NCBI GenBank assembly: GCA_026388815.1
Contig: JAPLJA010000080.1
Location: 1,838 to 65,837, forward strand
From: Pseudomonadota bacterium
GTDB taxonomy: Bacteria > Desulfobacterota > WTBG01 > JAPLJA01
Direction of reading: 5' to 3'
Length of the DNA stretch: 64,000 nucleotides
Numbering within the stretch: position 1 is the first letter of the stretch; each line of letters opens with the position of its first letter. The notes beneath the pieces were generated by a model. The model ran no database searches. It was not told the DNA's origin and saw only the letters and a program-made list of their open reading frames with translations. Shown here piece after piece: positions 31,921 to 54,349 of the stretch. The position numbers and the translations under genes are program-made.

Positions 31921-32025
31921 AGGATTAATGCGAAAACAATGAACGATGATCAGGGCGCAGCAAGCAGCGCCCATACCGGGGAATGGCAAGGCAATTCAAA
32001 AACATCACATAATAGGGGGTGGAAG

Positions 32026-33417
32026 ATGAAAAAGATTCTCTGTTTGACCGTGACTTTGATGGTTCTTATGACAGGCCTTGCCCACGCCGGCACCGTCAAT
32101 CTGCCTCGAACAGGCCAGACGAAATGCTATGACACATCCGGTAATAAGATTACCTGTGCAGGCACAGGCCAGGACGGAGACATTCAGGCTGGGGTGGCTT
32201 GGCCAGAGCCGAGGTTTACAGATAATGGCGATGGAAGAATGACAGATAACCTGACAGGACTTATGTGGACAAAAGATGCTAACTTGCCTGGAGGCACAAA
32301 GATATGGCAAGAGACTCTCGATTACTGTAACAATTTAACTTTAGGTGGGTACTCAGACTGGCGTCTCCCTAACATAAATGAACTGGAAAGCCTGGTCAAT
32401 GGCGCCGAATCCAATACCACCACCTGGCTGAATACCCAGGGCTTCACCAATGTGCAGGCCGACGGCTACTGGTCCTCTACGAGCTGCGCCGGCCTCCCGG
32501 ACCTCGCGTGGGTCGTCCATATGTGGTATGGCCTCGTGGTCACCAATGTGTGTTATTCCGGCGTGTGCTACGGCAGTAAGTCCGACGACTACTACGTTTG
32601 GCCGGTGCGTAGCGGACAGGTTGGGTCATTGGAGAATTCGGTAATTTCACTTCCCCAGACCGGCCAGACAAAGTGTTTTGGCACATATGGCAATGAGATT
32701 CCCTGTTCAGGCACAGGACAGGATGGTGAAATCCAGGCCGGAGTTGGCTGGCCCAACCCGAGGTTTACCGACCATGGAGATACCGTAACTGACAATCTAA
32801 CAGGGCTCATGTGGACAAAGAATGCCGGTCTGCCCGGTGTCCAAGAAACATGGCAACAGGCACTCAACTATGTGAAAGGAATGAATTCAGGCACCTATCA
32901 AAGCTATGGCTATACCGACTGGCGCCTGCCTAACCGGAAAGAACTGCACAGCTTAACTGACTACTCACAGCATGGTCCAGCACTGCCCTCATATCACCCT
33001 TTCCCCAATGCCAACAGAGACTGGTCTTCTACTACCTTCGCCTACGACCCGGGCTACGCGTGGATCGTCGATATGTGGGATGGCATCGTGTGCGATAGCA
33101 CTAAGTCCGTCAGCTTCTACTACGTTTGGCCTGTTCGTGGTGGACAGTCTGGGCCATTAGATCATTGGGTCATTTCCGGCGCCATCATGCATAGGGGGTC
33201 TGGCTTGCAGAATGTTACTATGACCTTAAGTGGGGATGCCTCAATGACCACATCAACAAGGGCAGATGGTACCTACTCCTTTACGGATCTCTCCAATGGC
33301 ACCTATGTCATAACCCCCAGCAAGAGTGGCTATAAGTTCTGGCCCAAAAGCAGATCTATTACAATAAACGATTCAGACGTGTCCGAACAAAACTTTAGGG
33401 GGATAAAAATGCGGTAA
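32026..33417 (+). CDS. Secreted protein with two DUF1566 (Lcl C-terminal-like) domains and a CarboxypepD_reg-like beta-sandwich
   Basis: Signal peptide MKKILCLTVTLMVLMTGLAHA. The block LPxTGQTKC..GTGQDG.IQAGV.WP.PRFTD...DNLTGLMWTK...DWRLPN..EL.SL...YWSSTS...YVWPVR.GQ occurs twice. Tail GTYSFTDLSNGTYVITPSKSGYKF. Confidence 0.8.
   Translation: MKKILCLTVTLMVLMTGLAHAGTVNLPRTGQTKCYDTSGNKITCAGTGQDGDIQAGVAWPEPRFTDNGDGRMTDNLTGLMWTKDANLPGGTKIWQETLDYCNNLTLGGYSDWRLPNINELESLVNGAESNTTTWLNTQGFTNVQADGYWSSTSCAGLPDLAWVVHMWYGLVVTNVCYSGVCYGSKSDDYYVWPVRSGQVGSLENSVISLPQTGQTKCFGTYGNEIPCSGTGQDGEIQAGVGWPNPRFTDHGDTVTDNLTGLMWTKNAGLPGVQETWQQALNYVKGMNSGTYQSYGYTDWRLPNRKELHSLTDYSQHGPALPSYHPFPNANRDWSSTTFAYDPGYAWIVDMWDGIVCDSTKSVSFYYVWPVRGGQSGPLDHWVISGAIMHRGSGLQNVTMTLSGDASMTTSTRADGTYSFTDLSNGTYVITPSKSGYKFWPKSRSITINDSDVSEQNFRGIKMR
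32448..32616 (+). other. DGR variable-region-like segment VR3 (remote, with a 24-nt insertion relative to the TR)
   Basis: Aligns to the TR coding strand, with most differences at TR adenines (AACAAT->GACGGC, AGCAACGCCAACAAC->AGCTGCGCCGGCCTC). There are also several non-A changes and a diverged 3' end. Confidence 0.55.
33007..33144 (+). other. DGR variable-region-like segment VR4 (remote)
   Basis: TGGTCTTCTAC..GCGTGGATCGTCGATATGTGGGATGGCATCGTG..TACGTTTGGCCTGTTCG aligns to the TR. Differences are mainly at TR adenines. The 3' end GTTCGTGGTGGA differs from the TR's GTTCGCGCGGGA. Confidence 0.55.
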
Positions 33418-44936: not shown

Positions 44937-44989
44937 TAGATTAGTTCAAAGCCTTAAAAATGTATGAATCGAAAGGAGGTGACAAGGGG

Positions 44990-45229
44990 ATGTCTAAAGT
45001 GATCGATGCTGTCTTTGAGAATGGGGTCTTTAGACCTGTGAAGAAGATACGCCTTAAGGAAAGAAAAAAAGTTCAGATACAGATACTTTCTGATGATGAC
45101 TGGCAGAAAAGGTTTGAGAGAGCACTCAAATCTATCCGCAGCAAAACCGCCGGCTTCCCGCCAGAAGAAATCGAGGCAGATATAAGAGAAGCAATAAAAG
45201 AGGTTCGCGAAAGGAAGCGTGCACGTTAA
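44990..45229 (+). CDS. DUF104-type antitoxin
   Basis: MSKVIDAVFENGVFRPV.. is the signature N-terminus of the DUF104/AF2212-like antitoxin family. AAAGGAGG lies upstream. Confidence 0.6.
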   Translation: MSKVIDAVFENGVFRPVKKIRLKERKKVQIQILSDDDWQKRFERALKSIRSKTAGFPPEEIEADIREAIKEVRERKRAR

Positions 45230-45662
45230 GGTTGTTATTGATACCAATATCTGGATTTCTGCTTTGGTTTCTCCGGGTGGCTTGGCTGCCGAACTTGTCG
45301 AGCAATGGAGGAAAGGCAGCTTCACGCTTATCGCCTGTGAACAACAAATTACCGAATTGTGTGACGTTCTATCCCGGTCAAAGTTTTCATACAAATATCA
45401 CATAAGCAATAAACAGGTGGAAGATATAGTTGCCCCGATCATTGAAAAAGCAGAGCGTGTAACCATAAGAGGGAACATCACATGTTGTCGGGATTTGGAC
45501 GATAATATGCTTATTGAAGCCGCCGTCCGTGGAAAAGCCAAATATCTGATCACCGGAGATAAGGATATCAGAGATGATAAAGAAGTTTCGTCTTTTTTAG
45601 CACGGAATGGCGTAATTGTTATTTCCGTCGCCAAGTTCTTAGACCTCATACGCAAGGCCTAA
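45219..45662 (+). CDS. PIN-domain toxin
   Basis: VVIDTNIWISAL.. (first catalytic Asp) and ..DLDDNMLIEAAVRGKAKYLITGDKD. GTG start overlaps the antitoxin by 11 nt. Confidence 0.7.
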   Translation: MHVKVVIDTNIWISALVSPGGLAAELVEQWRKGSFTLIACEQQITELCDVLSRSKFSYKYHISNKQVEDIVAPIIEKAERVTIRGNITCCRDLDDNMLIEAAVRGKAKYLITGDKDIRDDKEVSSFLARNGVIVISVAKFLDLIRKA

Positions 45663-45868: not shown

Positions 45869-45955
45869 TTAATTCTTAATTGTTTCTTTCGGCACCAGAC
45901 TTACCGGCCCGTGCATGGTGCTGTTGTCGTAGATGTCGATGTCCTCACGGAAAAT
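45869..45955 (-). pseudogene. Orphan 3'-terminal fragment of a paralogue of the 1351-aa DGR target gene
   Basis: My translation gives ..IFREDIDIYDNSTMHGPVSLVPKETIKN*. Compare the large protein's C-terminus YKLEDIDLNGTSTLHGPVSAAPRV. Confidence 0.5.
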
Positions 45956-45972
45956 AGAACCCCATGAACGAT

Positions 45973-46383
45973 TCAACTCTCGATTAAGAATCCCTCTCTC
46001 GCAAGATATTCTTTTGGCTTTATTATTTCGATTCCTTCGTATATATGCAAATTTAGTAAATGTCTGTCTCCTGAAATAATGTAGTCTGCCTTACCGTCGA
46101 TAGCGCACTCAAGAAAAATATTATCGGTTGGATCTACCGTAATTAACGAAATCTTGCTCTTGGTTTCTAACAGCTCAGCACAGTTTCTTAAGTTTGTTAC
46201 AAATGGGATGACCTCTTGAGGTGAGAGTCCAAATTTTGAATAACCCAATACGCGCATAAACTCTCTTTCCATTTCTTTGCTGAGAAGCATAGTCAGCTTC
46301 CCATCACGTATCAGATTATAAACCCTTCGTGGATAGCCATCCCGGAAAAATGCAGCAATCGTAACATTCGTATCCAGGACAAT
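45973..46383 (-). CDS. PIN-domain toxin; the conserved N-terminus has no canonical start codon
   Basis: The track ORF starts at Met 46290, but the same frame is open upstream and encodes KRIVLDTNVTIAAFF.. (the PIN catalytic Asp box). Only ATT, ATC or CTG are available as starts. C-terminal ..DNIFLECAIDGKADYIISGDRHLL. Confidence 0.55.
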   Translation of the reverse strand: MVLDTNVTIAAFFRDGYPRRVYNLIRDGKLTMLLSKEMEREFMRVLGYSKFGLSPQEVIPFVTNLRNCAELLETKSKISLITVDPTDNIFLECAIDGKADYIISGDRHLLNLHIYEGIEIIKPKEYLAREGFLIES

Positions 46384-46388
46384 CCTTT

Positions 46389-46622
46389 TTAATGAATACC
46401 CCGTGATTCATGGATTATCTTTTCAATATCCTCCTCAGTCAGTTTATTGAACCCTTTTCCCTCTGCAAGGGATTCTGCATAGCTGTATATCTCCGATTCT
46501 TCGACTGGTATCAACATCACATCAAAAACCTTTCCGACTTCTTTTGCCGCATCATCTGGCAATGAAAGATGCCCATCTGGCAAAACCCGACCTATGAATC
46601 TGCGTGTTATTGTTGTTTTCAT
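46389..46622 (-). CDS. Putative antitoxin (small, AbrB/SpoVT-like N-terminus)
   Basis: 77 aa, immediately upstream of the PIN gene. GRVLPDGHLSLPDDAAKEVGKVFDVMLIP resembles a swapped-hairpin DNA-binding fold. Confidence 0.4.
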   Translation of the reverse strand: MKTTITRRFIGRVLPDGHLSLPDDAAKEVGKVFDVMLIPVEESEIYSYAESLAEGKGFNKLTEEDIEKIIHESRGIH

Positions 46623-46909: not shown

Positions 46910-49900
46910 TTACCTCAAACTGTGAAATACACGTGGAGCAGCTGATACCGGGCCATGTAATGTTGAAGTACCATTGAGGTCGATGTCTTCAAGTTTGTAG
47001 TAATAGGTCTTACGGTTCTGAACATTCTCATCAACAAACTGATATGTCGCTCCCTGCGTGGCAGATCCCTGGGCTGGAATCAATGAGGAATTGATCTTTA
47101 CGTATTCACCATTTTCTGATTCAGCGCGGTAGAGGTTAAAACCTGCATTGTCGATTTCAGAGGCGGTAGTCCATTTGAGAATGATTGCTCGGTCAGAGGG
47201 GGTGGTGGTGAAGGAGGAAAGGGTGATTAACGTCGGTTCACACGCATCACCTATCCCATCGCCATCTGAATCCTGTTGACCGGGGTTAGAAATGTTGGGG
47301 CAGTTGTCAACTATATCTGCTATCCCATCGCCATCGGAATCCATTAAGGCAATAAAATCCATACCGGTTACATCTGCATCAATAACATCAATTGTCTGGC
47401 TCAGCGGATCAAAGGCATAACCGGAAAGGGATGGTGTAATGGTGTATGAACCGTTGAACACTCCGGGGAAAATGTAATTCCCGGCAGAATCGGTTGTGGT
47501 GGTCATTGAGAAGGTACCGGATAGAGCCAGGGTAATACCTTCCAGTACATCCCCCGTTACCGTGCCAGATAGTGAGTAGGTAGGAACAGAATCAGGATCA
47601 AGAGGGTCAGAGCCTCTCTGAATCTCAATATAATCGCTGTAACTGTCTTCGTCGGTATCGTTCAGTAATGGGCTCGTCCCTCGAATATACTCTTCACCGT
47701 CGTTGAGACCATCACTATCTGTATCCGGGTTGCTCAAGTCAGTCCCTAAAGATGTTTCCTGGACATCAGTGAGCCCGTCATGATCACGGTCGTCGTTGGT
47801 TGCAAAGTTAGAGAGGAAGCTTTCTGTCCCGTCTGACATCACTGCTGAAACAGCATATACCCTGGTTGTAACTGATGAATTTTCTACCCAAGGGTGGTTG
47901 GTATAAAAGGAACTGACGGTTGAGGTTCCCAGTTGGGAGGGGTATGGCTCATCTATTTGTTTTGAGTAGATTATGTATCCTGTTGCCTCAGGATATGCGC
48001 TTGCATCCCAGGTGAGCTTTGTTATTAGGCCGCCTGAATCCAGGGGATCTGCCTGAAGTCCAGTGGGGGGAGAGGGTACATTTACCGTAATCCTGTCATC
48101 CGATGTTGAGTCTACGGTGAAAGAAATGTTGGTAGTAGTAGCGTGGTTAAAGCCCCAGTATTCCCTGTTCACAGCCTTTTCTGAGTCAGAATAGCTCAAG
48201 GCCAAGCGATAATCTTCTTGATAGGCGTCTTTAAGATAGAGGGTGTACAGACCATCAGCCGTATTTTTGATGCTTATTGTTCCACCGTCCTTATCTATTG
48301 AGATTATACTATCGGGGATTTCATCTTCCCGTATATCAGTTGCTGGATTAATGCCACTTTTTCTACCGAGAGGATCTATGAGGTAGGGCTGGACCCGTCC
48401 TCGCACCGAGATTGTCATCCTAGGCGTGTCAGGAGCACCGCCAGACAAGAGATAATTACTCGAACCTGTCATAAGCGGAGAAGATGCTGGTGTTTTACCT
48501 GTAATAAACTCTACAATCTCATTACTGTATGTAGTGATTAATTCGCTGTGCTTACCCTCCTTCTCATCAACAGAGTCCATCCCTGAGATGATGGCGCTGT
48601 TTTTAAGGACAGTCCCATCACCTTCCCCTGTTTTTGTTGGATCACCTTTTGGTACGCCATCCTTATATAGGTTATTTGGCTTCCCAACATCAATTACCTC
48701 AATAGTATTTTTATTTATCCCTGCAAATATTTTAACTTCCTTGACTGAGAGGGCAAGATTCCTATTCAATGTAATGAGACTCTTATTGTAACTTTCAAGG
48801 TCACCAATGCTTAATAATGGCGTGCATTCTGAACCGAGCGGAGAGAAAAAGCATTGCCTTAAAAACGGATAGGTTGGCAAAAGCTCTCTTACCGATTTTA
48901 CGTGTTCATGCACGAAATCTCTTATCAGAATATTATTTGGTTTTATAACTACGGCGGGGGTGCTCTGGGCATGTGTTTCAAAGTTTGAAAACGCCCTTTT
49001 ATTCATTTCCTTATAGATATTCTCCAAAACATTCGTATATAAATTAATGAAAAAATCACTCAATCCATCATTCAAGTTGTCAGCCAGTTTTGGGTCCCCG
49101 CCTTCCCAGATGTAGTAGGCATTGGCAGCCCCCTGGTTTGGTGTGCCCACCATGGCAAACCTGTCAATGTCTTTCTGGTAGTCACTGCTCTGAATGTAGG
49201 ATCTCACCACAAGCCCGCCCATGCTGTGGGCAATGATGTGTACCTTGTCAGTACCAGCGATATCTTGGGCTCTGTCAATCCATCGCTTGAGGTAATTTTT
49301 AGCACAATCGTCTATTTCTAATCTCCAGTCATAGGGCACAGGGAAAATGTTGCACCCAACCTCATAATTGGGGTCTACGGATTTAATCTTTTCCGCCAGC
49401 AGTTTCCAGCCTGGCTTGCTGTCAGGTTGGCCGGAGTTATAGTCAAACAATCCGTTAAATACTTTATCTCCAGATTTTCTCCATCTTATGTCATACCATG
49501 GAGGTGAATCGGCAGGCAGAGTGGGATAGTTTTGGTCTGCTGTGGTGGAACCCATAATACCCGGTACAAGCAATATAGGGGTTAAGCCTGTAGGATTACA
49601 TGCGCTTCCCAGTATAACCAAATCCTGGCCGACACACTGATTGCTTGGGAGACATAGTGGAAATGTTTCGCTTACTCTGCTCTCTTTTACTGCCCAGAGA
49701 GAATAGTATCCGGATGAAACAGGTGGAAACTGGTAGTTGCCATTGCTGTTTGTGGTTGTCGAAAGTTGATTGGTCCCCCCATCATCCAACCATACGGTGG
49801 CACCTTCTATTCTATTTCCGCTGCCATCTCTCACGGTTCCGCCCAGAGAGGAAAGATTTGAAATTCCTCCTGTTATGCTAAAGGAGTTACTCTCCCCTGA

Positions 49901-50965
49901 TTTACCACCACCATTTGTTCTGATGTTTATACTGTTTCCGGGACTATCGAGCTTTACAGAAAGCGTAGCAGTGCCATTAGTAAAGTAAGCTTTCATCGGG
50001 CTTACCATACCGATTGTGGCACTCAAAATAGCTTCCCCGTTAAATTGTGTTGCTGTATCGCCATTCCTATCCTTTGCATTAATGGTGATCACAAAGGGTA
50101 CGTTAACAGTCTGGGGGGATGTGATGGAAGAAAAAGAAAAATGATCAAGCAAACCATAGGCCGTAAAATCCTGCCCAGTTACATTGCTTCCTGAGATGTT
50201 TACAATTCTTGATGGAGGATTAAAGGTATATCCCGTTAGACTGGGCGTTATAGTGTATGTGCCGTCGGCAAGGTCAGTGAAAGAGTACGTTCCATCAGAG
50301 ACCGTTGTAGTGGTTTTTGAGACCGTTCCAGACAAGGTCACAGTGACACCGGCCAGGCCGGAGCCGTTGTAGGTAACGCTGCCGGAAATAACCAAATTAC
50401 CAAATGACCCAGACTGTCCCGCGCGAACAGGCCAGACGTAGTAGTAGTAGCCGGACTTATTGCTGTTGTGCACGTAGCCAAAACACATACTGACGATCCA
50501 CGCGTAGCCCGGGTTGCTGGCGTAGCTCGTAGAAGACCAGTAATAGCCGGCCTGCACATTGGTAAAGGGATGCCCGGCGGGTAAGGCTGGCGAGTATTGT
50601 GAAAAGTCAGTCAGGCTGTGTATTTCCTTCAGGTTGGGAAGACGCCAGTCATGATAGCCGTAATTGGGATAGGTTCCGGCATTCATCCCTGCCACATAAT
50701 TCAGCGCTTGCTGCCAGTTCATGTATCCATTAGGAAGATTTGCATTCTTTGTCCACATCAGGCCGGTGAGATTATCGGTTGCCGTGCCATTTCCATGATC
50801 GGCAAACCGTGGCACAGGCCAGGCAACACCTCTTTCCAGGTCGCCGTCATCGCCGCTGTAATAACTCGCTTTCTGCCCTGTTTCCCATATCGGCGCCGGT
50901 TGGCAAAATGCCGCGCTCGCCAAAGCCGTAACCAAAATCACAACAAAACATATTATCTTTTTCAT
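46910..50965 (-). CDS. 1351-aa secreted multidomain protein (DGR target 2): N-terminal DUF1566 domain carrying VR2, beta-sandwich/Ig-like domains, alpha/beta-hydrolase (lipase-like), thrombospondin-type-3-like Ca-binding repeats, FN3-like C-terminus
   Basis: Start at internal MKKIICFVVILVTALASAAF (ATG 50965, GGAGGG upstream, 2 nt after the RT stop). GxSxG nucleophile elbow in HIIAHSMGGLVV (Ser codon 49223-49225). DTDSDGLNDGEE and DSDGDGIADIVDNCPNISNPGQQDSDGDGIGDAC repeats. Confidence 0.85.
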   Translation of the reverse strand: MKKIICFVVILVTALASAAFCQPAPIWETGQKASYYSGDDGDLERGVAWPVPRFADHGNGTATDNLTGLMWTKNANLPNGYMNWQQALNYVAGMNAGTYPNYGYHDWRLPNLKEIHSLTDFSQYSPALPAGHPFTNVQAGYYWSSTSYASNPGYAWIVSMCFGYVHNSNKSGYYYYVWPVRAGQSGSFGNLVISGSVTYNGSGLAGVTVTLSGTVSKTTTTVSDGTYSFTDLADGTYTITPSLTGYTFNPPSRIVNISGSNVTGQDFTAYGLLDHFSFSSITSPQTVNVPFVITINAKDRNGDTATQFNGEAILSATIGMVSPMKAYFTNGTATLSVKLDSPGNSINIRTNGGGKSGESNSFSITGGISNLSSLGGTVRDGSGNRIEGATVWLDDGGTNQLSTTTNSNGNYQFPPVSSGYYSLWAVKESRVSETFPLCLPSNQCVGQDLVILGSACNPTGLTPILLVPGIMGSTTADQNYPTLPADSPPWYDIRWRKSGDKVFNGLFDYNSGQPDSKPGWKLLAEKIKSVDPNYEVGCNIFPVPYDWRLEIDDCAKNYLKRWIDRAQDIAGTDKVHIIAHSMGGLVVRSYIQSSDYQKDIDRFAMVGTPNQGAANAYYIWEGGDPKLADNLNDGLSDFFINLYTNVLENIYKEMNKRAFSNFETHAQSTPAVVIKPNNILIRDFVHEHVKSVRELLPTYPFLRQCFFSPLGSECTPLLSIGDLESYNKSLITLNRNLALSVKEVKIFAGINKNTIEVIDVGKPNNLYKDGVPKGDPTKTGEGDGTVLKNSAIISGMDSVDEKEGKHSELITTYSNEIVEFITGKTPASSPLMTGSSNYLLSGGAPDTPRMTISVRGRVQPYLIDPLGRKSGINPATDIREDEIPDSIISIDKDGGTISIKNTADGLYTLYLKDAYQEDYRLALSYSDSEKAVNREYWGFNHATTTNISFTVDSTSDDRITVNVPSPPTGLQADPLDSGGLITKLTWDASAYPEATGYIIYSKQIDEPYPSQLGTSTVSSFYTNHPWVENSSVTTRVYAVSAVMSDGTESFLSNFATNDDRDHDGLTDVQETSLGTDLSNPDTDSDGLNDGEEYIRGTSPLLNDTDEDSYSDYIEIQRGSDPLDPDSVPTYSLSGTVTGDVLEGITLALSGTFSMTTTTDSAGNYIFPGVFNGSYTITPSLSGYAFDPLSQTIDVIDADVTGMDFIALMDSDGDGIADIVDNCPNISNPGQQDSDGDGIGDACEPTLITLSSFTTTPSDRAIILKWTTASEIDNAGFNLYRAESENGEYVKINSSLIPAQGSATQGATYQFVDENVQNRKTYYYKLEDIDLNGTSTLHGPVSAAPRVFHSLR
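50417..50562 (-). other. DGR variable region VR2
   Basis: Hand alignment to the TR over 146 nt gives 19 differences at TR adenines and 1 non-adenine difference. The 3' end GTTCGCGCGGGA is identical to the TR. Confidence 0.85.
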
Positions 50966-50967
50966 CG

Positions 50968-52602
50968 TTAGCCCTCCTGGGGTATCAGTTTCGCTACCGG
51001 CAGGCGTTCCTTTATCCTGCCCAGGTATCTTCCTGTCTCCTTGATGATTACAACCGGTAGACCTTTTCTCAGCAGTCTTCCCGCATACTCCTTTTCGAGC
51101 CTTACCGGAAAACCGTATGTGACCGGTCTCGTTCTCGCGGTAATGCTCCGAAGTCCGAGGATGTTTTGCACCTCCGCTTTTATTTCGGAGTAGCATTCAA
51201 AAAAACACCCCACCTGGAAGAACATGAACATGCCCTTGAACATGTTTGCATAATGTAAATACTGGCTTTTTACAGAAGAAAAGAGGTGTGTTGGTTTTAT
51301 GGCATAATTGCGGGGAATCACTTTATCGTTGTCAAAATGGAAATATTCTCTTAAAAATGAATATCTTTGTATGATGGTCTGTTTAAGCCGGTATGCATCC
51401 GCCCACTTGAGATGGCCGAAATACGAGGCGATGACAGAACGGAGCCGGTTGATAAGTTCGTAGTCATACCTGATAATGCGTAACCCGTCATGCTCCGAGA
51501 TCAACCGCTGTTGAAACCATTCTAATTTTTCCCTCAGGTTATTCACCACCCTCCTCCGTACCAGCAGGTAATCTTCCCGGATGATATAGCCTAAAAAATC
51601 TATGCCGTTTGACACCGGCAGGATTCTTCCGTGCTTTTCGTTGAGTGATAGGTTGAGCTGGCGTGACACAAACCCGCTGATTTTTTCCTTTGCTTCTGTT
51701 AGAAATTCCGGTGATTCATGGAGGATGACAAAATCGTCACAGTACCGTACATAGTACCGGCATTTCAAGGTATGCTTTACAAACTGATCAAGTGCGTTGA
51801 GATAGACGTTGGCGAAGAACTGACTGGTGAGGTTGCCGATAGGCAGACCTCTGTTCTCCGGCGCGCTGAACAAGCTCTTCTGAACGGGAATCCGTTCACG
51901 CAAGTGCTTCTTTCCTTTGATGATGCAATGATCCGTGGGACGATGGAATATGATGGTGTGGGCAAACGAGCGCATCTGTTCATCCCCTACCTTCTTTTCA
52001 ACGATCCGATAAAGGATCTCTTTGTCAATTGACATGAAAAAATTCTTAATATCCAGATGCATGAAATAGAGCCTTTTTCTGCCGTTCCGGCTGCCTTGCC
52101 GTATGAAGCCGCGCAAACGTTCCACTGCCTTGTGTAACCCTTTATCCTTCCGGCATGCATAGGAGTCGTAGATAAAAACAGGTTCAAAGATGGATTCCAG
52201 TCTTTCGACCAGGATGTGGTGAACGACCCTGTCCCTGAAATCGGCGGCTATAATCTCTCTCATCTTCGGTCGTTCAACCATGAAGCAGACAGAACGGGTG
52301 GGCTGATAGGTTCCCTGTTGGAGCTCTTCTGAAAGGTTTAAGAGATTCTCTTCGGCGTTTATCTCAAATTTCAGGCAATTGATGGTGTTCCGTTTATGTT
52401 TCCTGCATGTGAGATAATTCCGGTACAGATTTTCAAAAGAGAAGAGGGGAGGCAGCCACTCTCCCGCGCGAACAGGCCAGACGTAGTTGTTGTTGTTGGA
52501 CTTATTGTTGTTGTTCACGTTGCCATTCCACATATTGACGATCCACGCGTTGTCCGGGTTGTTGGCGTTGCTCGTAGAAGACCAGTAATTGTTGGCCTGC
52601 AC
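50968..52602 (-). CDS. DGR reverse transcriptase with C-terminal MutS-domain-I-like extension (the ORF as drawn includes the TR at its 5' end)
   Basis: LPIGNLTSQFFANVYL (DGR-specific I/LGxxxSQ), RYCDDFVIL (YxDD), N-terminal LFSFENLYRNYLTCRKHKRN. The last ~100 aa, ..FFQVGCFFECY..GLR...R......GFP......Y...LL.KG..V, resemble MutS domain I. Confidence 0.9.
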   Translation of the reverse strand: MQANNYWSSTSNANNPDNAWIVNMWNGNVNNNNKSNNNNYVWPVRAGEWLPPLFSFENLYRNYLTCRKHKRNTINCLKFEINAEENLLNLSEELQQGTYQPTRSVCFMVERPKMREIIAADFRDRVVHHILVERLESIFEPVFIYDSYACRKDKGLHKAVERLRGFIRQGSRNGRKRLYFMHLDIKNFFMSIDKEILYRIVEKKVGDEQMRSFAHTIIFHRPTDHCIIKGKKHLRERIPVQKSLFSAPENRGLPIGNLTSQFFANVYLNALDQFVKHTLKCRYYVRYCDDFVILHESPEFLTEAKEKISGFVSRQLNLSLNEKHGRILPVSNGIDFLGYIIREDYLLVRRRVVNNLREKLEWFQQRLISEHDGLRIIRYDYELINRLRSVIASYFGHLKWADAYRLKQTIIQRYSFLREYFHFDNDKVIPRNYAIKPTHLFSSVKSQYLHYANMFKGMFMFFQVGCFFECYSEIKAEVQNILGLRSITARTRPVTYGFPVRLEKEYAGRLLRKGLPVVIIKETGRYLGRIKERLPVAKLIPQEG

Positions 52603-52607
52603 ATTTG
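52462..52607 (-). other. DGR template region (TR)
   Basis: The coding strand encodes NVQANNYWSSTSNANNPDNAWIVNMWNGNVNNNNKSNNNNYVWPVRAG with 17 AAY (Asn) codons. It is about 86% identical to VR1 and VR2, with mismatches confined to its adenines. Confidence 0.9.
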
Positions 52608-52755
52608 CCCACCCACTTTGAGTTCTTCACCAGGCAATTCCTTGAAGGATATGCCTGATTGCCAGCTAATGCCCGCCTTCGGCGGGCGGGATGGGCGCAC
52701 AGTGGTTTGTCTCTGCACACCTGCCAGTCTCGATATGATAAAGGCAGTTCTGGCA

Positions 52756-53148
52756 TCATCCACCCTCCTGGTTGTTTCTTATCCAGCCTTCGTTCTGTCT
52801 GCTCATGGAGATTGTTTCTTCGATGGCATGTTGAAAGGAATCAAAGTTTTTAAATGCCTTCACCTCCTTGCATATCCTGAGGGTAACCTTGAGATCTTCT
52901 ATGGTATCCCTGAGTATGGCCAGGGTTGTCTGTTTATCCCGTTCAGAGTTTGCCCTGATAACAAGCCTGACCACCTCACGGGACAGACTCCTCACGTCTG
53001 TTCCCAGTGTATATTTATGATACCGTGAGAATCCTCTCACAATATTTTCAAGGTAGATGGTTAAATCCATAGCCTTCTTGTAGAGGGGAAGATGTTCGTA
53101 CTGTGCCATAAAATCATAAAAAATATTTTCAAATAACCGAATAATCAA
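52756..53148 (-). CDS. avd: DGR accessory variability determinant (Avd, four-helix-bundle family)
   Basis: HLPLYKKAMDLTIYLENIVRGFSRYHKYTLGTDVR...VIRAN... has the Avd-like pattern, and the gene sits between target 1 and the TR. The track start is TTG; an alternative ATG lies at 53109. Confidence 0.75.
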   Translation of the reverse strand: MIIRLFENIFYDFMAQYEHLPLYKKAMDLTIYLENIVRGFSRYHKYTLGTDVRSLSREVVRLVIRANSERDKQTTLAILRDTIEDLKVTLRICKEVKAFKNFDSFQHAIEETISMSRQNEGWIRNNQEGG

Positions 53149-53157
53149 ATAACCTAA

Positions 53158-53730
53158 TCACTGTCCCGCGCGAACAGGCCAGACGTAGTAGCTGCCGTAG
53201 GACTTATAGTTGTAGCCCACGCGGCCATTCCACATACCGACGATCCACGCGTCGTCCGGGTAGAAGGCGTAGCTCGTAGAAGACCAGTAATTGTCGGCCT
53301 GCACATTGGTAAAACCCTGAGAGCTAAGCCAGGTGGCTGAATTAGCTTCTTCTCTATTGATGAGGCTTTCCAGCTCATTCACACTGGGTAAGCGCCAGTC
53401 GGTGTAGCCGCACAGGTTTAGATTGTTACAGTCATCAACGGCCTGATACCAGGTCCTGATGCCATTTGGAAGATTGGCATTCTTAGCCCACATCAGGCCG
53501 GTAAGGGTATCGGTGACGCAGTCACCATTTACCTGAAACCTTGGGCTCGGCGGGGCTACACCAGCCTGAATGGCGCCGTCCTGCCCGGTGCCCGGACAGG
53601 GGATTTGATTTCCGGCTGTGTCATAGCATTTCTTCTGGCCGGTTTTTGGAAGGTTGACGGTGCCGGCAAGGGCAAGACCGGATACGAAGAACAGTAATAT
53701 TACGGTTAAAGAAAGGATTCGGTTTTTCAT
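53158..53730 (-). CDS. DGR target 1: secreted single-domain DUF1566 protein with C-terminal VR1
   Basis: Signal peptide MKNRILSLTVILLFFVSGLALA, then LPKTGQKKCYD..GTGQDGAIQAGV...DTLTGLMWAK..DWRLPSVNELESL...YWSSTSYAFYPDDAWIVGMWNGRVGYNYKSYGSYYVWPVRAGQ*. Confidence 0.85.
   Translation of the reverse strand: MKNRILSLTVILLFFVSGLALAGTVNLPKTGQKKCYDTAGNQIPCPGTGQDGAIQAGVAPPSPRFQVNGDCVTDTLTGLMWAKNANLPNGIRTWYQAVDDCNNLNLCGYTDWRLPSVNELESLINREEANSATWLSSQGFTNVQADNYWSSTSYAFYPDDAWIVGMWNGRVGYNYKSYGSYYVWPVRAGQ
53164..53309 (-). other. DGR variable region VR1
   Basis: Hand alignment to the TR over 146 nt gives 20 differences, every one at a TR adenine (T on the printed strand). Confidence 0.9.
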
Positions 53731-53790
53731 TTTACCCCCATTTTTATCACCCAAAGAAATTATCCGCCTCCGGCGGACCAAACGTTTTGT

Positions 53791-54070: not shown

Positions 54071-54349
54071 TTTAAGAGGCTTACTGATTATTTCAGGAAT
54101 GGTAAGAATACTGCTGGCCAAAACTGATCTCCTCTCGTGAAGATAGCTAACGAATTTTTACCTGGCCAAGCTGATACTTATCCTTAGATGCAGAGACAAT
54201 TATTAACGAATAATATATAATGTCAAGAAAATTCTTTTAAAAGCATGGCAAATTCAAGAGGATATGACCAGCCTGTTTTTTTGCAGGAGACGCTGTCCGT
54301 AAGTCAAAGTTCCCTTTACTTACATACCATTTTGCATTACCCTTTTTAC

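Follow-up and report, generated by a model that had tools for sequence, protein, structure and literature searches.

The window analysed here is a DNA stretch of 64,000 nucleotides (nt) from a Pseudomonadota bacterium (assembly GCA_026388815.1, contig JAPLJA010000080.1, positions 1,838 to 65,837). It contains a diversity-generating retroelement (DGR), and the question it raises is why one of the two variable regions (VRs) of this element lies in the first domain of a secreted, lipase-like protein of 1351 amino acids (aa). The targets of DGRs are usually summarised as proteins with a C-terminal variable lectin domain acting as a binder or a sensor. On the minus strand, between 54.2 and 46.9 kb, the window contains a complete DGR in the order small target with VR1, accessory variability determinant (bAvd), template repeat (TR), reverse transcriptase (RT) and large target with VR2. 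The locus is a chromosomal, cellular DGR with two targets in one operon. The initial annotation of the window had suggested that the variable head of the large target delivers a hydrolase to changing ligands; as judged from the sequence and from the comparisons described below, this suggestion is plausible.

The features of the cassette, all located on the minus strand, are as follows. Target 1 (53158-53781), an open reading frame (ORF) of 207 aa, encodes a small secreted DUF1566/Lcl_C protein (Pfam Lcl_C, E 1e-31). Its C-terminal VR1 (53160-53310) ends at the stop codon and differs from the TR at 20 positions, 19 of which are TR adenines. The bAvd gene (52756-53148) matches Pfam PF22296 with an E value of 1.8e-10 and 41.7 bits against a cut-off of 40. 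The TR (52458-52608) contains 18 AAY codons and forms an in-frame part of the RT ORF at its 5' end. The RT (50968 to approximately 52455), assigned by RVT_1 (E 2.5e-19) and by an RT alignment, carries the motif IGNLTSQ, and its sequence LPIGNLTSQFFANVYLN is invariant in three aligned RTs. The pattern [I/L/V]GxxxSQ in motif 4 is a mark of the RTs of the DGR clade. Residues 445-523 of the RT ORF (51034-51270) constitute a C-terminal extension similar to MutS_I (Pfam MutS_I, E 1.3e-5, and the NCBIfam model of the MutS N-terminus).

VR2 (50413-50563) encodes residues 135-184 of target 2. As had been predicted, it sits inside the gene and closes the first domain; the place given by the initial annotation was right, and the exact limits, 50417-50562, have been corrected. 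TR and VR2 differ at 20 positions, 18 of them at TR adenines, so that 14 of the 18 AAY codons of the TR are altered; the two other differences are one G>T change and one C/G difference at the 3' end. The latter separates the initiation of mutagenic homing site (IMH) of the VRs from IMH* of the TR: both VRs end with GGGACAGT, the TR ends with GGGAGAGT, and the homology between TR and VRs stops there. The window contains three exact copies of the 24-mer from the 3' end of the repeat, versus none expected. Thus, the locus possesses the RT motif, adenine-biased TR/VR pairs, Avd, IMH and IMH* and a variable domain of the lectin class that characterise DGRs. The customary position of a VR at the C-terminus of the target is found for VR1 and not for VR2, which is followed by 1166 codons.

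Target 2 (46910-50965) was delineated by its ORF, Pfam matches and a homologue search. The stretch 46910-51196 is one open frame with no internal stops and no N, so a split or mis-assembled ORF was rejected; the concern that several genes might have been joined by masked stop codons does not apply to the continuous frame 46910-50965. The RT stop codon TAA (50968-50970) is followed by CG and then by the ATG of target 2, which leaves a gap of 2 nt. The junction reads ...CAGGAGGGC TAA CG ATG AAA and places AGGAGG before the RT stop, 8 nt upstream of the target 2 start; the ribosome-binding site is therefore located in the RT gene's 3' end. All the elements of the translational coupling noticed earlier, including the distance of 2 nt, are thus present. 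The protein begins MKKIICFVV..., with a putative signal peptide MKKIICFVVILVTALASAAFCQ (50900-50965) read from the sequence, and its N-terminus is common to the homologues, which likewise open with MKKI(I/L)C. Despite the frame being open to 51196, the start at 50965 is credible because of the opening similar to a signal peptide and the matching start of the homologues. A candidate operon promoter, a near-consensus sigma-70-like TTGACA-16-AATAAT, is located upstream of the cassette (54199-54226, minus strand); it is a consensus match only, and such sites are no more frequent in the region than expected by chance.

The N-terminal domain of target 2 (aa 25-186; 50408-50893) is of the DUF1566/Lcl_C type, a class with the C-type lectin (CLec) fold (PMC11661182, PMC6642488). 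The Pfam Lcl_C match (aa 60-181, E 7e-32) spans the VR, which makes up the last approximately 50 residues of the domain, and about 1170 residues of the protein lie beyond it. A beta-sandwich spacer follows at aa ~192-450 (49616-50392; boundaries approximate), composed of CarboxypepD_reg, Ig-like and CarboxypepD_reg domains as judged by Pfam matches to CarboxypepD_reg (three stretches), SdrD_B and Big_1. Next come the hydrolase and a beta-rich region with an FN3-like segment (aa ~850-1056; 47798-48418), delimited by the comparison of homologues and by the beta strands at the end of the structural model. This region is present in 26 of 27 homologues of the LCAT-type hydrolase, with 31-92% identity; the 27th, a truncated sequence, is unmatched. 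Further downstream (47234-47797), Pfam TSP3_bac and TSP_3 delineate TSP3 block 1 (aa 1057-1125) and TSP3 block 2 (aa 1208-1244), with a third CarboxypepD_reg domain (aa 1127-1207) between them; the DxDxD calcium repeats lie at aa 1059, 1081 and 1103 in block 1 and at aa 1209 and 1232 in block 2. The C-terminal domain (aa 1245-1351, 107 aa; 46913-47233) is FN3-like. The calcium-binding blocks, the sandwiches and the tail foreseen by the initial annotation were all recovered by Pfam, the PDB search and Foldseek. The description of a large multidomain protein with the VR first was accurate as well. The accompanying statement that textbook targets are of modest size was too simple, since large multidomain targets are common; the unusual feature of target 2 is the order of the domains, with the variable one first.

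The sequence search of the PDB with the whole of target 2 retrieved COMP and thrombospondin-2 (E 1e-17 to 1e-15) and recognised the TSP3 repeats only, so a structure model was needed to assign the hydrolase. The central domain (aa ~463-845; 48431-49579) matches Pfam LCAT PF02450 at aa 533-624 with 53.0 bits against a cut-off of 21. In an alignment of the region with 21 homologues of 33-88% identity, His580-Ser581 (AHSMGG), Asp783 (GDGTV) and His806 (KHSEL) are invariant, together with about 40 further columns. In the AlphaFold2 (AF2) model of aa 441-900, with a predicted local distance difference test (pLDDT) score of 82, the serine lies between strand 135-140 and helix 142-151 (model numbering), and the aspartate and the histidine come after later strands. 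This serine at a strand-helix elbow, with Asp and His past later strands, indicates the alpha/beta-hydrolase arrangement. Foldseek against the PDB returned LCAT (4x96, E 1e-9) and LPLA2 (4x92, E 4e-9), with template modelling (TM) scores of about 0.5 on target length, and also bacterial family I lipases, Tle4 and, weakly, PhaZ7. The alpha/beta-hydrolase with the AHSMGG elbow named in the initial annotation is thus borne out by a Pfam LCAT match above the cut-off and by a model that folds like LCAT/LPLA2 and bacterial lipases. The catalytic triad, whose lack would have spoken against it, is present in Ser581, Asp783 and His806, invariant and in canonical order. The centre of target 2 is predicted to be an LCAT/LPLA2-like serine hydrolase with these conserved residues. 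The whole protein could conversely be a long variable adhesin in which the hydrolase is a dead scaffold, and the partial Pfam LCAT match, confined to profile positions 80-176, agrees with this. However, the AHSMGG, GDGTV and H-x-x-L motifs and the other invariant columns persist among homologues down to 33% identity, and the fold matches active lipases. A dead enzyme is not expected, because the catalytic Ser, Asp and His and their motifs are invariant, and such a scaffold would be a great surprise.

The protein search found dozens of proteins that combine Lcl_C with the LCAT-type hydrolase of target 2, and in two other lineages the complete cassette surrounds them. In the Geobacteraceae bacterium GWC2_58_44 (MGZL01000144; locus L003), a small Lcl_C protein, Avd, TR and RT precede an Lcl_C-LCAT protein of 1199 aa; this locus has been public since 2016. 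A Thermodesulfobacteriota metagenome-assembled genome (CAYZIS010000004; locus L012) has a five-part gene order identical to that of the window. Mismatches at adenines account for 20/23 (VR1) and 20/29 (VR2) in the former locus and for 18/19 in both VRs of the latter, and the large targets are only 35-43% identical to target 2. The scan of GTDB genomes with the hydrolase alignment yielded, among the matches listed, mostly distant hydrolases devoid of DUF1566 from the candidate phyla radiation (CPR) and other phyla, and only L011 and L012 were informative. An orthologue with 86% identity, P0002 (loci L006-L009, which like L090-L092 come from the freshwater-sediment samples Ga0315275-Ga0315289), is situated directly after an Avd gene, where the contigs break; another homologue, P0005, starts at a contig start, so that its upstream context lies outside the data. 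The VR of P0002 differs from VR2 of the window at 24 of 48 TR-adenine sites versus 8 of 99 other sites (Fisher p 3e-8, a comparison of two lineages). Such an excess at adenine sites is the signature expected if both lineages keep rewriting this region.

These comparisons bear on the explanation that VR2 is a bystander, namely that the small protein is the real target and that the large gene merely holds a copy of the DUF1566 domain, which is mutagenised by accident or no longer at all. The N-terminal domain of target 2 is indeed a paralogue of target 1 (48% identity, with a 74-nt repeat at 80%), VR2 has one non-adenine mismatch, and a relative of decayed appearance, with 10 non-adenine mismatches, is found at 31939-33417. 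Against this, the 3' end of VR2 is identical to that of VR1 and is followed by the same flanking repeat, its adenine bias (18/20) equals that of VR1 (19/20), three lineages keep this arrangement and the adenine bias of VR2 in spite of the divergence of the targets, and orthologous VRs differ mainly at adenine sites. This explanation is considered very improbable.

The relation between the position of a VR and the gene order was analysed in 80 metagenomic loci related to the RT, which were fetched and in which every adenine-biased TR/VR pair was located. Upstream of the RT, 39 of 40 VRs end at a stop codon and are C-terminal. Downstream of the RT, nine or ten of 13 are internal and lie in N-terminal domains, with 142 to 1166 residues after them. 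The downstream targets in the related RT loci all open with a signal peptide and a DUF1566 head and differ in their payloads. An LCAT-like hydrolase is the payload in the window, L003 and L012; an Abhydrolase_6/Lipase_2/PGAP1-like hydrolase occupies this place in L091 and L092 (RT identity to the window RT 93% and 82%, respectively), and a DUF900 hydrolase does so in L117. He_PIG Ig repeats follow the head in L106 and a second DUF1566 domain in L096. In L095 (2345-5833 of contig Ga0172371_10032929; RT 57% identical to that of the window), the payload consists of DUF6531 and 24 RHS repeats. The N-terminal VR of this protein, which has the architecture of an Rhs toxin, shows 21 of 25 mismatches at adenines, and its C-terminal tip is lost at the contig end; P0103 is built in the same way (DUF1566 and Rhs), with the gene starting at a contig end. 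The survey proposed in the initial annotation, a search for internal VRs ahead of hydrolases, therefore found them at several related DGRs (L003, L012, L091, L092 and L117). Target 2 and its counterparts in the related loci represent a reproducible exception with a rule of its own: in a target placed after the RT, the variable domain comes first, the enzyme or toxin payload next, and the element flanking the VR is translated.

The closest RTs of the related loci share the MutS_I-like C-terminal extension. As a side observation, such an extension (MutS domain I is a mismatch-binding domain) was seen in approximately 29 of the 80 related loci, most of the closest ones included. The TR, taken as 52458-52602 on the minus strand, is in frame within the long RT ORF, which would begin MQANNYWSSTSNANN...; since it is in frame and the gene calls in L003 start within the TR, part of the TR may be translated and extend the RT at its N-terminus. 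It was also observed that locus L172 (4216-10410 of Ga0373630_0001003) comprises a small Lcl_C gene, bAvd, a TR-like ORF and a target of 1469 aa with Lcl_C first, with no RT gene between the last two; the explanation is either a deletion of the RT or service of the cassette in trans.

How a VR can reside within a gene is suggested by the sequence behind it. A C-terminal VR has been called near-universal, which was explained by the need for non-coding cis elements (PMC8144416), and according to a passage of Wu et al. 2018 (PMC5758913) the IMH of internal VRs must be constrained by the coding sequence. In every locus examined, GGAC(A/C)GT marks the end of the homology between TR and VR. Behind each VR, and never behind the TR, come two to four units of an 8-nt repeat that ends ATTT or CTTT (window, L003, L012, L090-L169 and L173-L252). 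The unit is GGTNATTT in the window and AACNATTT or TGACAATTT in viral loci. The flank of VR1 in the window is GATTAGGTTATTTGATTATTCGGTTATTTG, contained in the untranslated phased T-tract repeat GATTAGGTTATTTGATTATTCGGTTATTTGAAAA (53126-53159, minus strand), and that of VR2 is CTGGGTCATTTGGTAATTTGGTTATTTCC (50384-50412, minus strand), which shows the same phasing and is read as SGSFGNLVIS. Chains of at least three phased [ACG]TT[TC] units, a measure chosen since a regular expression requiring TTTG undercounts the viral units, were present in 47% of 53 cellular and 39% of 69 viral VR flanks, versus 0% of TR flanks and 1% of random windows. The 12-mer ATTTGRTNATTT, with one mismatch allowed, had 13 matches in the window versus 3.9 expected, and seven of the 13 stand directly behind VR1, VR2 and two VR-like segments of a third DUF1566 gene.

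After C-terminal VRs, the repeat is located beyond the stop codon, and in some related loci a GC hairpin then follows; where the VR is internal, translation of the repeat gives the linker SGSFGNLVIS or one much like it, a peptide that recurs behind many internal DUF1566 domains. A GC hairpin after the IMH (a GC-rich inverted repeat occurs in 34% of DGRs) was found behind neither VR1 nor VR2, and the AT-rich phased repeat is there instead. The phased repeat is a candidate VR-recognition element, and the internal placement of a VR looks possible because the repeat is translated as a linker. It would offer an answer to a point made by both Wu et al. 2018 and Roux et al. 2021, who expect VRs to be kept at gene ends by cis elements, and it is a concrete candidate for the poorly understood recognition of the target in the approximately two-thirds of DGRs that have no GC hairpin. 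No description of a phased flank repeat was found in the DGR literature searched.

The reading that we prefer, and consider on balance somewhat probable, is that the DGR would rewrite the head of an exported protein, which would bind new ligands and bring the hydrolase to the bound surface. The RT with Avd would copy the TR RNA, inserting random bases opposite adenines, and the cDNA would replace VR1 and VR2. The VRs would be recognised through their shared 3' end (...GTCTGGCCTGTTCGCGCGGGACAGT, one base off the TR) and the phased repeat that lies behind the VRs and never behind the TR. After VR1, this repeat would be past the stop codon, and after VR2 it would serve as the inter-domain linker SGSFGNLVIS, letting the VR sit within the gene. 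The 18 AAY codons of the TR could allow approximately 10^20 variants of the head. The exported protein would bind, by its variable head, changing ligands on other cells or particles, and the spacers of beta-sandwiches and calcium repeats would hold the lipase or acyl-hydrolase against the bound surface. Such a DGR would re-aim an enzyme and not merely an adhesin. The candidate substrates may include membrane phospholipid, another lipid or a polyester, and the purpose may be attack or feeding. The enzyme-delivery suggestion gains comparative support, because related DGRs put the same variable head on other alpha/beta-hydrolases and on an Rhs-repeat protein.

Several observations weigh against this reading. 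VR2 holds one change at a site other than adenine, TGG>TGT. The excess of adenine-site differences between P0002 and VR2 was obtained between lineages and not within a population. The LCAT match covers only positions 80-176 of the 392 in the profile. The motif of the phased repeat was defined after the flanks had been seen, and its role in homing is deduced from position only. Finally, one DUF1566-hydrolase fusion (L004) has no RT or DGR within 10 kb, and for L170, the version with a PF00151 lipase, neither the 2 kb of contig upstream nor the 6 kb fetched downstream contains a DGR; since these fusions have no DGR in the ranges examined, the DUF1566-hydrolase architecture works without diversification.

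The enzyme-delivery reading also has a more aggressive form, in which target 2 would be a retargetable interbacterial or anti-eukaryotic toxin, with the head as a receptor binder and the lipase as a lethal payload attacking membranes. Its best argument comes from the sister DGR L095, which puts an adenine-diversified DUF1566 head on DUF6531 and RHS repeats, and from P0103 with the same build. The structural matches of the hydrolase model include Tle4, a type VI phospholipase effector, and an rhs toxin carrying DUF1566 was reported by Paul et al. 2017, as cited in a passage of Yan et al. 2019 (PMC6642488). The genomic context does not speak for a toxin. No immunity-like gene is conserved beside the large targets: antitoxin and PIN pairs are the neighbours in the window, L003 has no neighbour in common with it, and L012 was screened with five cassette queries only, not for immunity. 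The Pfam search revealed no PAAR, VgrG, two-partner-secretion (TPS) or other delivery domain in the window protein, and the C-terminal toxin of the L095 protein would lie beyond the contig end. In the neighbourhood of target 2 in the window, no immunity or secretion-system genes were found. A dedicated toxin is accordingly a serious but rather unlikely variant.

The other way of reading a head joined to a hydrolase is a cell-attached adhesin or nutrient scavenger. The protein would be held at the surface, perhaps by the FN3-like tail, the head, like that of target 1, would adhere to particles or partner cells in the manner of a diversifiable carbohydrate-binding module, and the hydrolase would harvest lipids or polyesters locally. 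According to Roux et al. 2021 (PMC8144416), the majority of DGR targets in cells are anchored in the membrane and bind substrates outside the cell, the hydrolase has weak matches to the polyhydroxyalkanoate (PHA) depolymerase PhaZ7, and TSP3 and CarboxypepD_reg are typical of surface proteins, the NCBIfam matches of target 2 including S-layer, MtsC and CglD. The tail bears on this reading most directly. It was modelled by AF2 with a pLDDT of 88 and matched the Fn3-like structure 3mpc in Foldseek (E 5e-4), while a PDB profile search with it gave no match. At 58-87% identity, it recurs at the extreme C-termini of 11 further secreted DUF1566 multidomain proteins (P0025, P0029, P0032, P0036, P0048-P0050, P0058, P0067, P0077 and P0118), as is usual for sorting or anchoring domains, and this conservation, the sole basis for such a role, suggests that the 107-aa tail may be an undescribed sorting or anchoring domain of the lineage. 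A 20-aa fragment of the tail domain was also noticed at 45887-45946 on the minus strand. On the other hand, no known sorting or anchor signal (PEP-CTERM, LPXTG, lipobox or the C-terminal domain of the type IX secretion system, T9SS) was detected above threshold with NCBIfam and lenient Pfam searches, and scavenging leaves the Rhs payload of the sister element unexplained. This reading is possible, and we give it limited credence.

A wider proposal can be formulated only tentatively, as it probably claims too much when taken as a whole. According to it, the DGR lineage whose RTs have a MutS_I tail would run a two-target programme, with a canonical small lectin and, after the RT, a large exported effector with a rewritten head. 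The payloads would be swapped by domain shuffling (at least two or three families of alpha/beta-hydrolases and Rhs cages). The VRs of a broad DGR clade would be recognised not by a GC hairpin but by the phased T-tract repeat, whose shortness would make the inverted architecture possible, since it can be translated as a linker with the consensus GSFGNxVI. If true, these would be the first retroelement-retargetable secreted enzymes or toxins. If the head steers the payload, DGRs would go beyond the tuning of adhesion and sensing and would redirect secreted lipases and toxins of the Rhs type to cell surfaces as these change, which would be relevant to microbial warfare in sediments and to the engineering of retargetable enzymes.

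The surroundings of the cassette are those of a bacterial chromosome. Its neighbours are housekeeping genes, namely MltG/YceG, pyruvate dehydrogenase E1, HemN-like and other radical SAM enzymes and RNase G, and in the viral collection no RT exceeded 54% identity to the window RT and none had the MutS_I tail. Because of the housekeeping neighbours and the lack of a close RT relative among viral contigs, the element is regarded as cellular and chromosomal, and an origin from a prophage or mobile element was rejected. The RNase G has 61-67% identity to proteins of Deltaproteobacteria/Thermodesulfobacteriota metagenome-assembled genomes and of Geobacter, which places the host, an uncultured bacterium, in that group. 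Immediately downstream of target 2, two pairs of a small antitoxin-like ORF and a PIN gene were noticed, at 44960-45662 (plus strand) and 45973-46622 (minus strand), one of the PIN proteins (105 aa) looking truncated. In L004 and L172, too, the related targets are flanked by such pairs, of the PIN, HEPN or nucleotidyltransferase type.

A third DUF1566 gene (31939-33417, plus strand), encoding two tandem DUF1566 domains and CarboxypepD_reg, was observed 17 kb from the cassette on the opposite strand. Each of the two DUF1566 domains ends in an internal VR-like segment, at 32449-32546 and 33010-33148, and these have 19 of 21 and 21 of 31 mismatches to the TR at adenines; both are followed by the phased repeat, with motif matches at 32636 and 33164. 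Possibly, this gene is a remote, former or decaying target of the DGR.

In comparison with known systems, parts of the arrangement have precedents. Earlier mentions exist of internal VRs, of the MutS_I tail of the RT and of a DUF1566-Rhs target, and any claim of novelty needs tempering. No description of lipase DGR targets or of a rule linking VR position and gene order was found in the literature searched, the supplement of Wu et al. 2018 and Paul et al. 2017 being outside it. Passages of Wu et al. 2018 (PMC5758913) list VRs away from the C-terminus (the Ig1 and Ig2 classes, one CLec2 case and three N-terminal cases) and three RTs with a MutS_I-like extension. Those passages describe no payload, no rule of position and gene order and no flanking repeat.

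The hydrolase of target 2 resembles LCAT, LPLA2 (PF02450), family I lipases and Tle4 in the alpha/beta-hydrolase fold, the elbow AHSMGG of the G-x-S-x-G type, the Asp in GDGTV, the downstream His and the helical insertions between core strands. It differs from them by an identity of only 12-18% and by its place within a modular exported protein of 1351 aa with a hypervariable head. Modular bacteriocins and Rhs polymorphic toxins likewise join a targeting module to a destructive payload, and the target of the sister DGR carries DUF6531 and RHS repeats. In those toxins, the variation arises by recombination of the C-terminal toxin tips, and an immunity gene is paired with the toxin, whereas here no immunity gene is evident and the variation would sit in the targeting head and would be generated by reverse transcription.

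Among DGRs, a close likeness is to the Legionella pneumophila element with its target LdtA (CLec2/DUF1566, 'category d' in a passage of Wu et al. 2018, PMC5758913), whose VR class ends ...YVWPVR-x-G. It shares this VR class, the DUF1566 variable domain, the exported target, Avd with RT and the adenine specificity, and target 1 is its direct counterpart. LdtA, however, is a short lipoprotein with the VR at the extreme C-terminus followed by a GC-rich inverted repeat, whereas the VR of target 2 is at aa 135-184 of 1351, the enzyme is downstream and the flank is an AT-rich phased repeat. The Mtd/Brt/Avd system of Bordetella phage BPP-1 has in common with the window element the features of mutagenic retrohoming, AAY codons, IMH and IMH* and a variable surface on the C-type-lectin fold. 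That system belongs to a phage, has a single target with its VR at the C-terminus and serves receptor switching for infection, while the window element is located on a chromosome and has two targets and an RT with a MutS_I-like tail. The fusion of a lectin-fold sensor to an effector, with shuffling around a constant VR module, is also known from the kinase targets of cyanobacteria (PMC7517822) and from the STAND-NTPase, peptidase and TIR 'antigen sensor' targets of Thiohalocapsa (PMC10907252). These proteins have the effector at the N-terminus and the variable domain at the C-terminus, and most of them are thought to act in intracellular signalling or defence; in target 2 the order is reversed, a signal peptide is present and the partner of the variable domain is of the lipase type.

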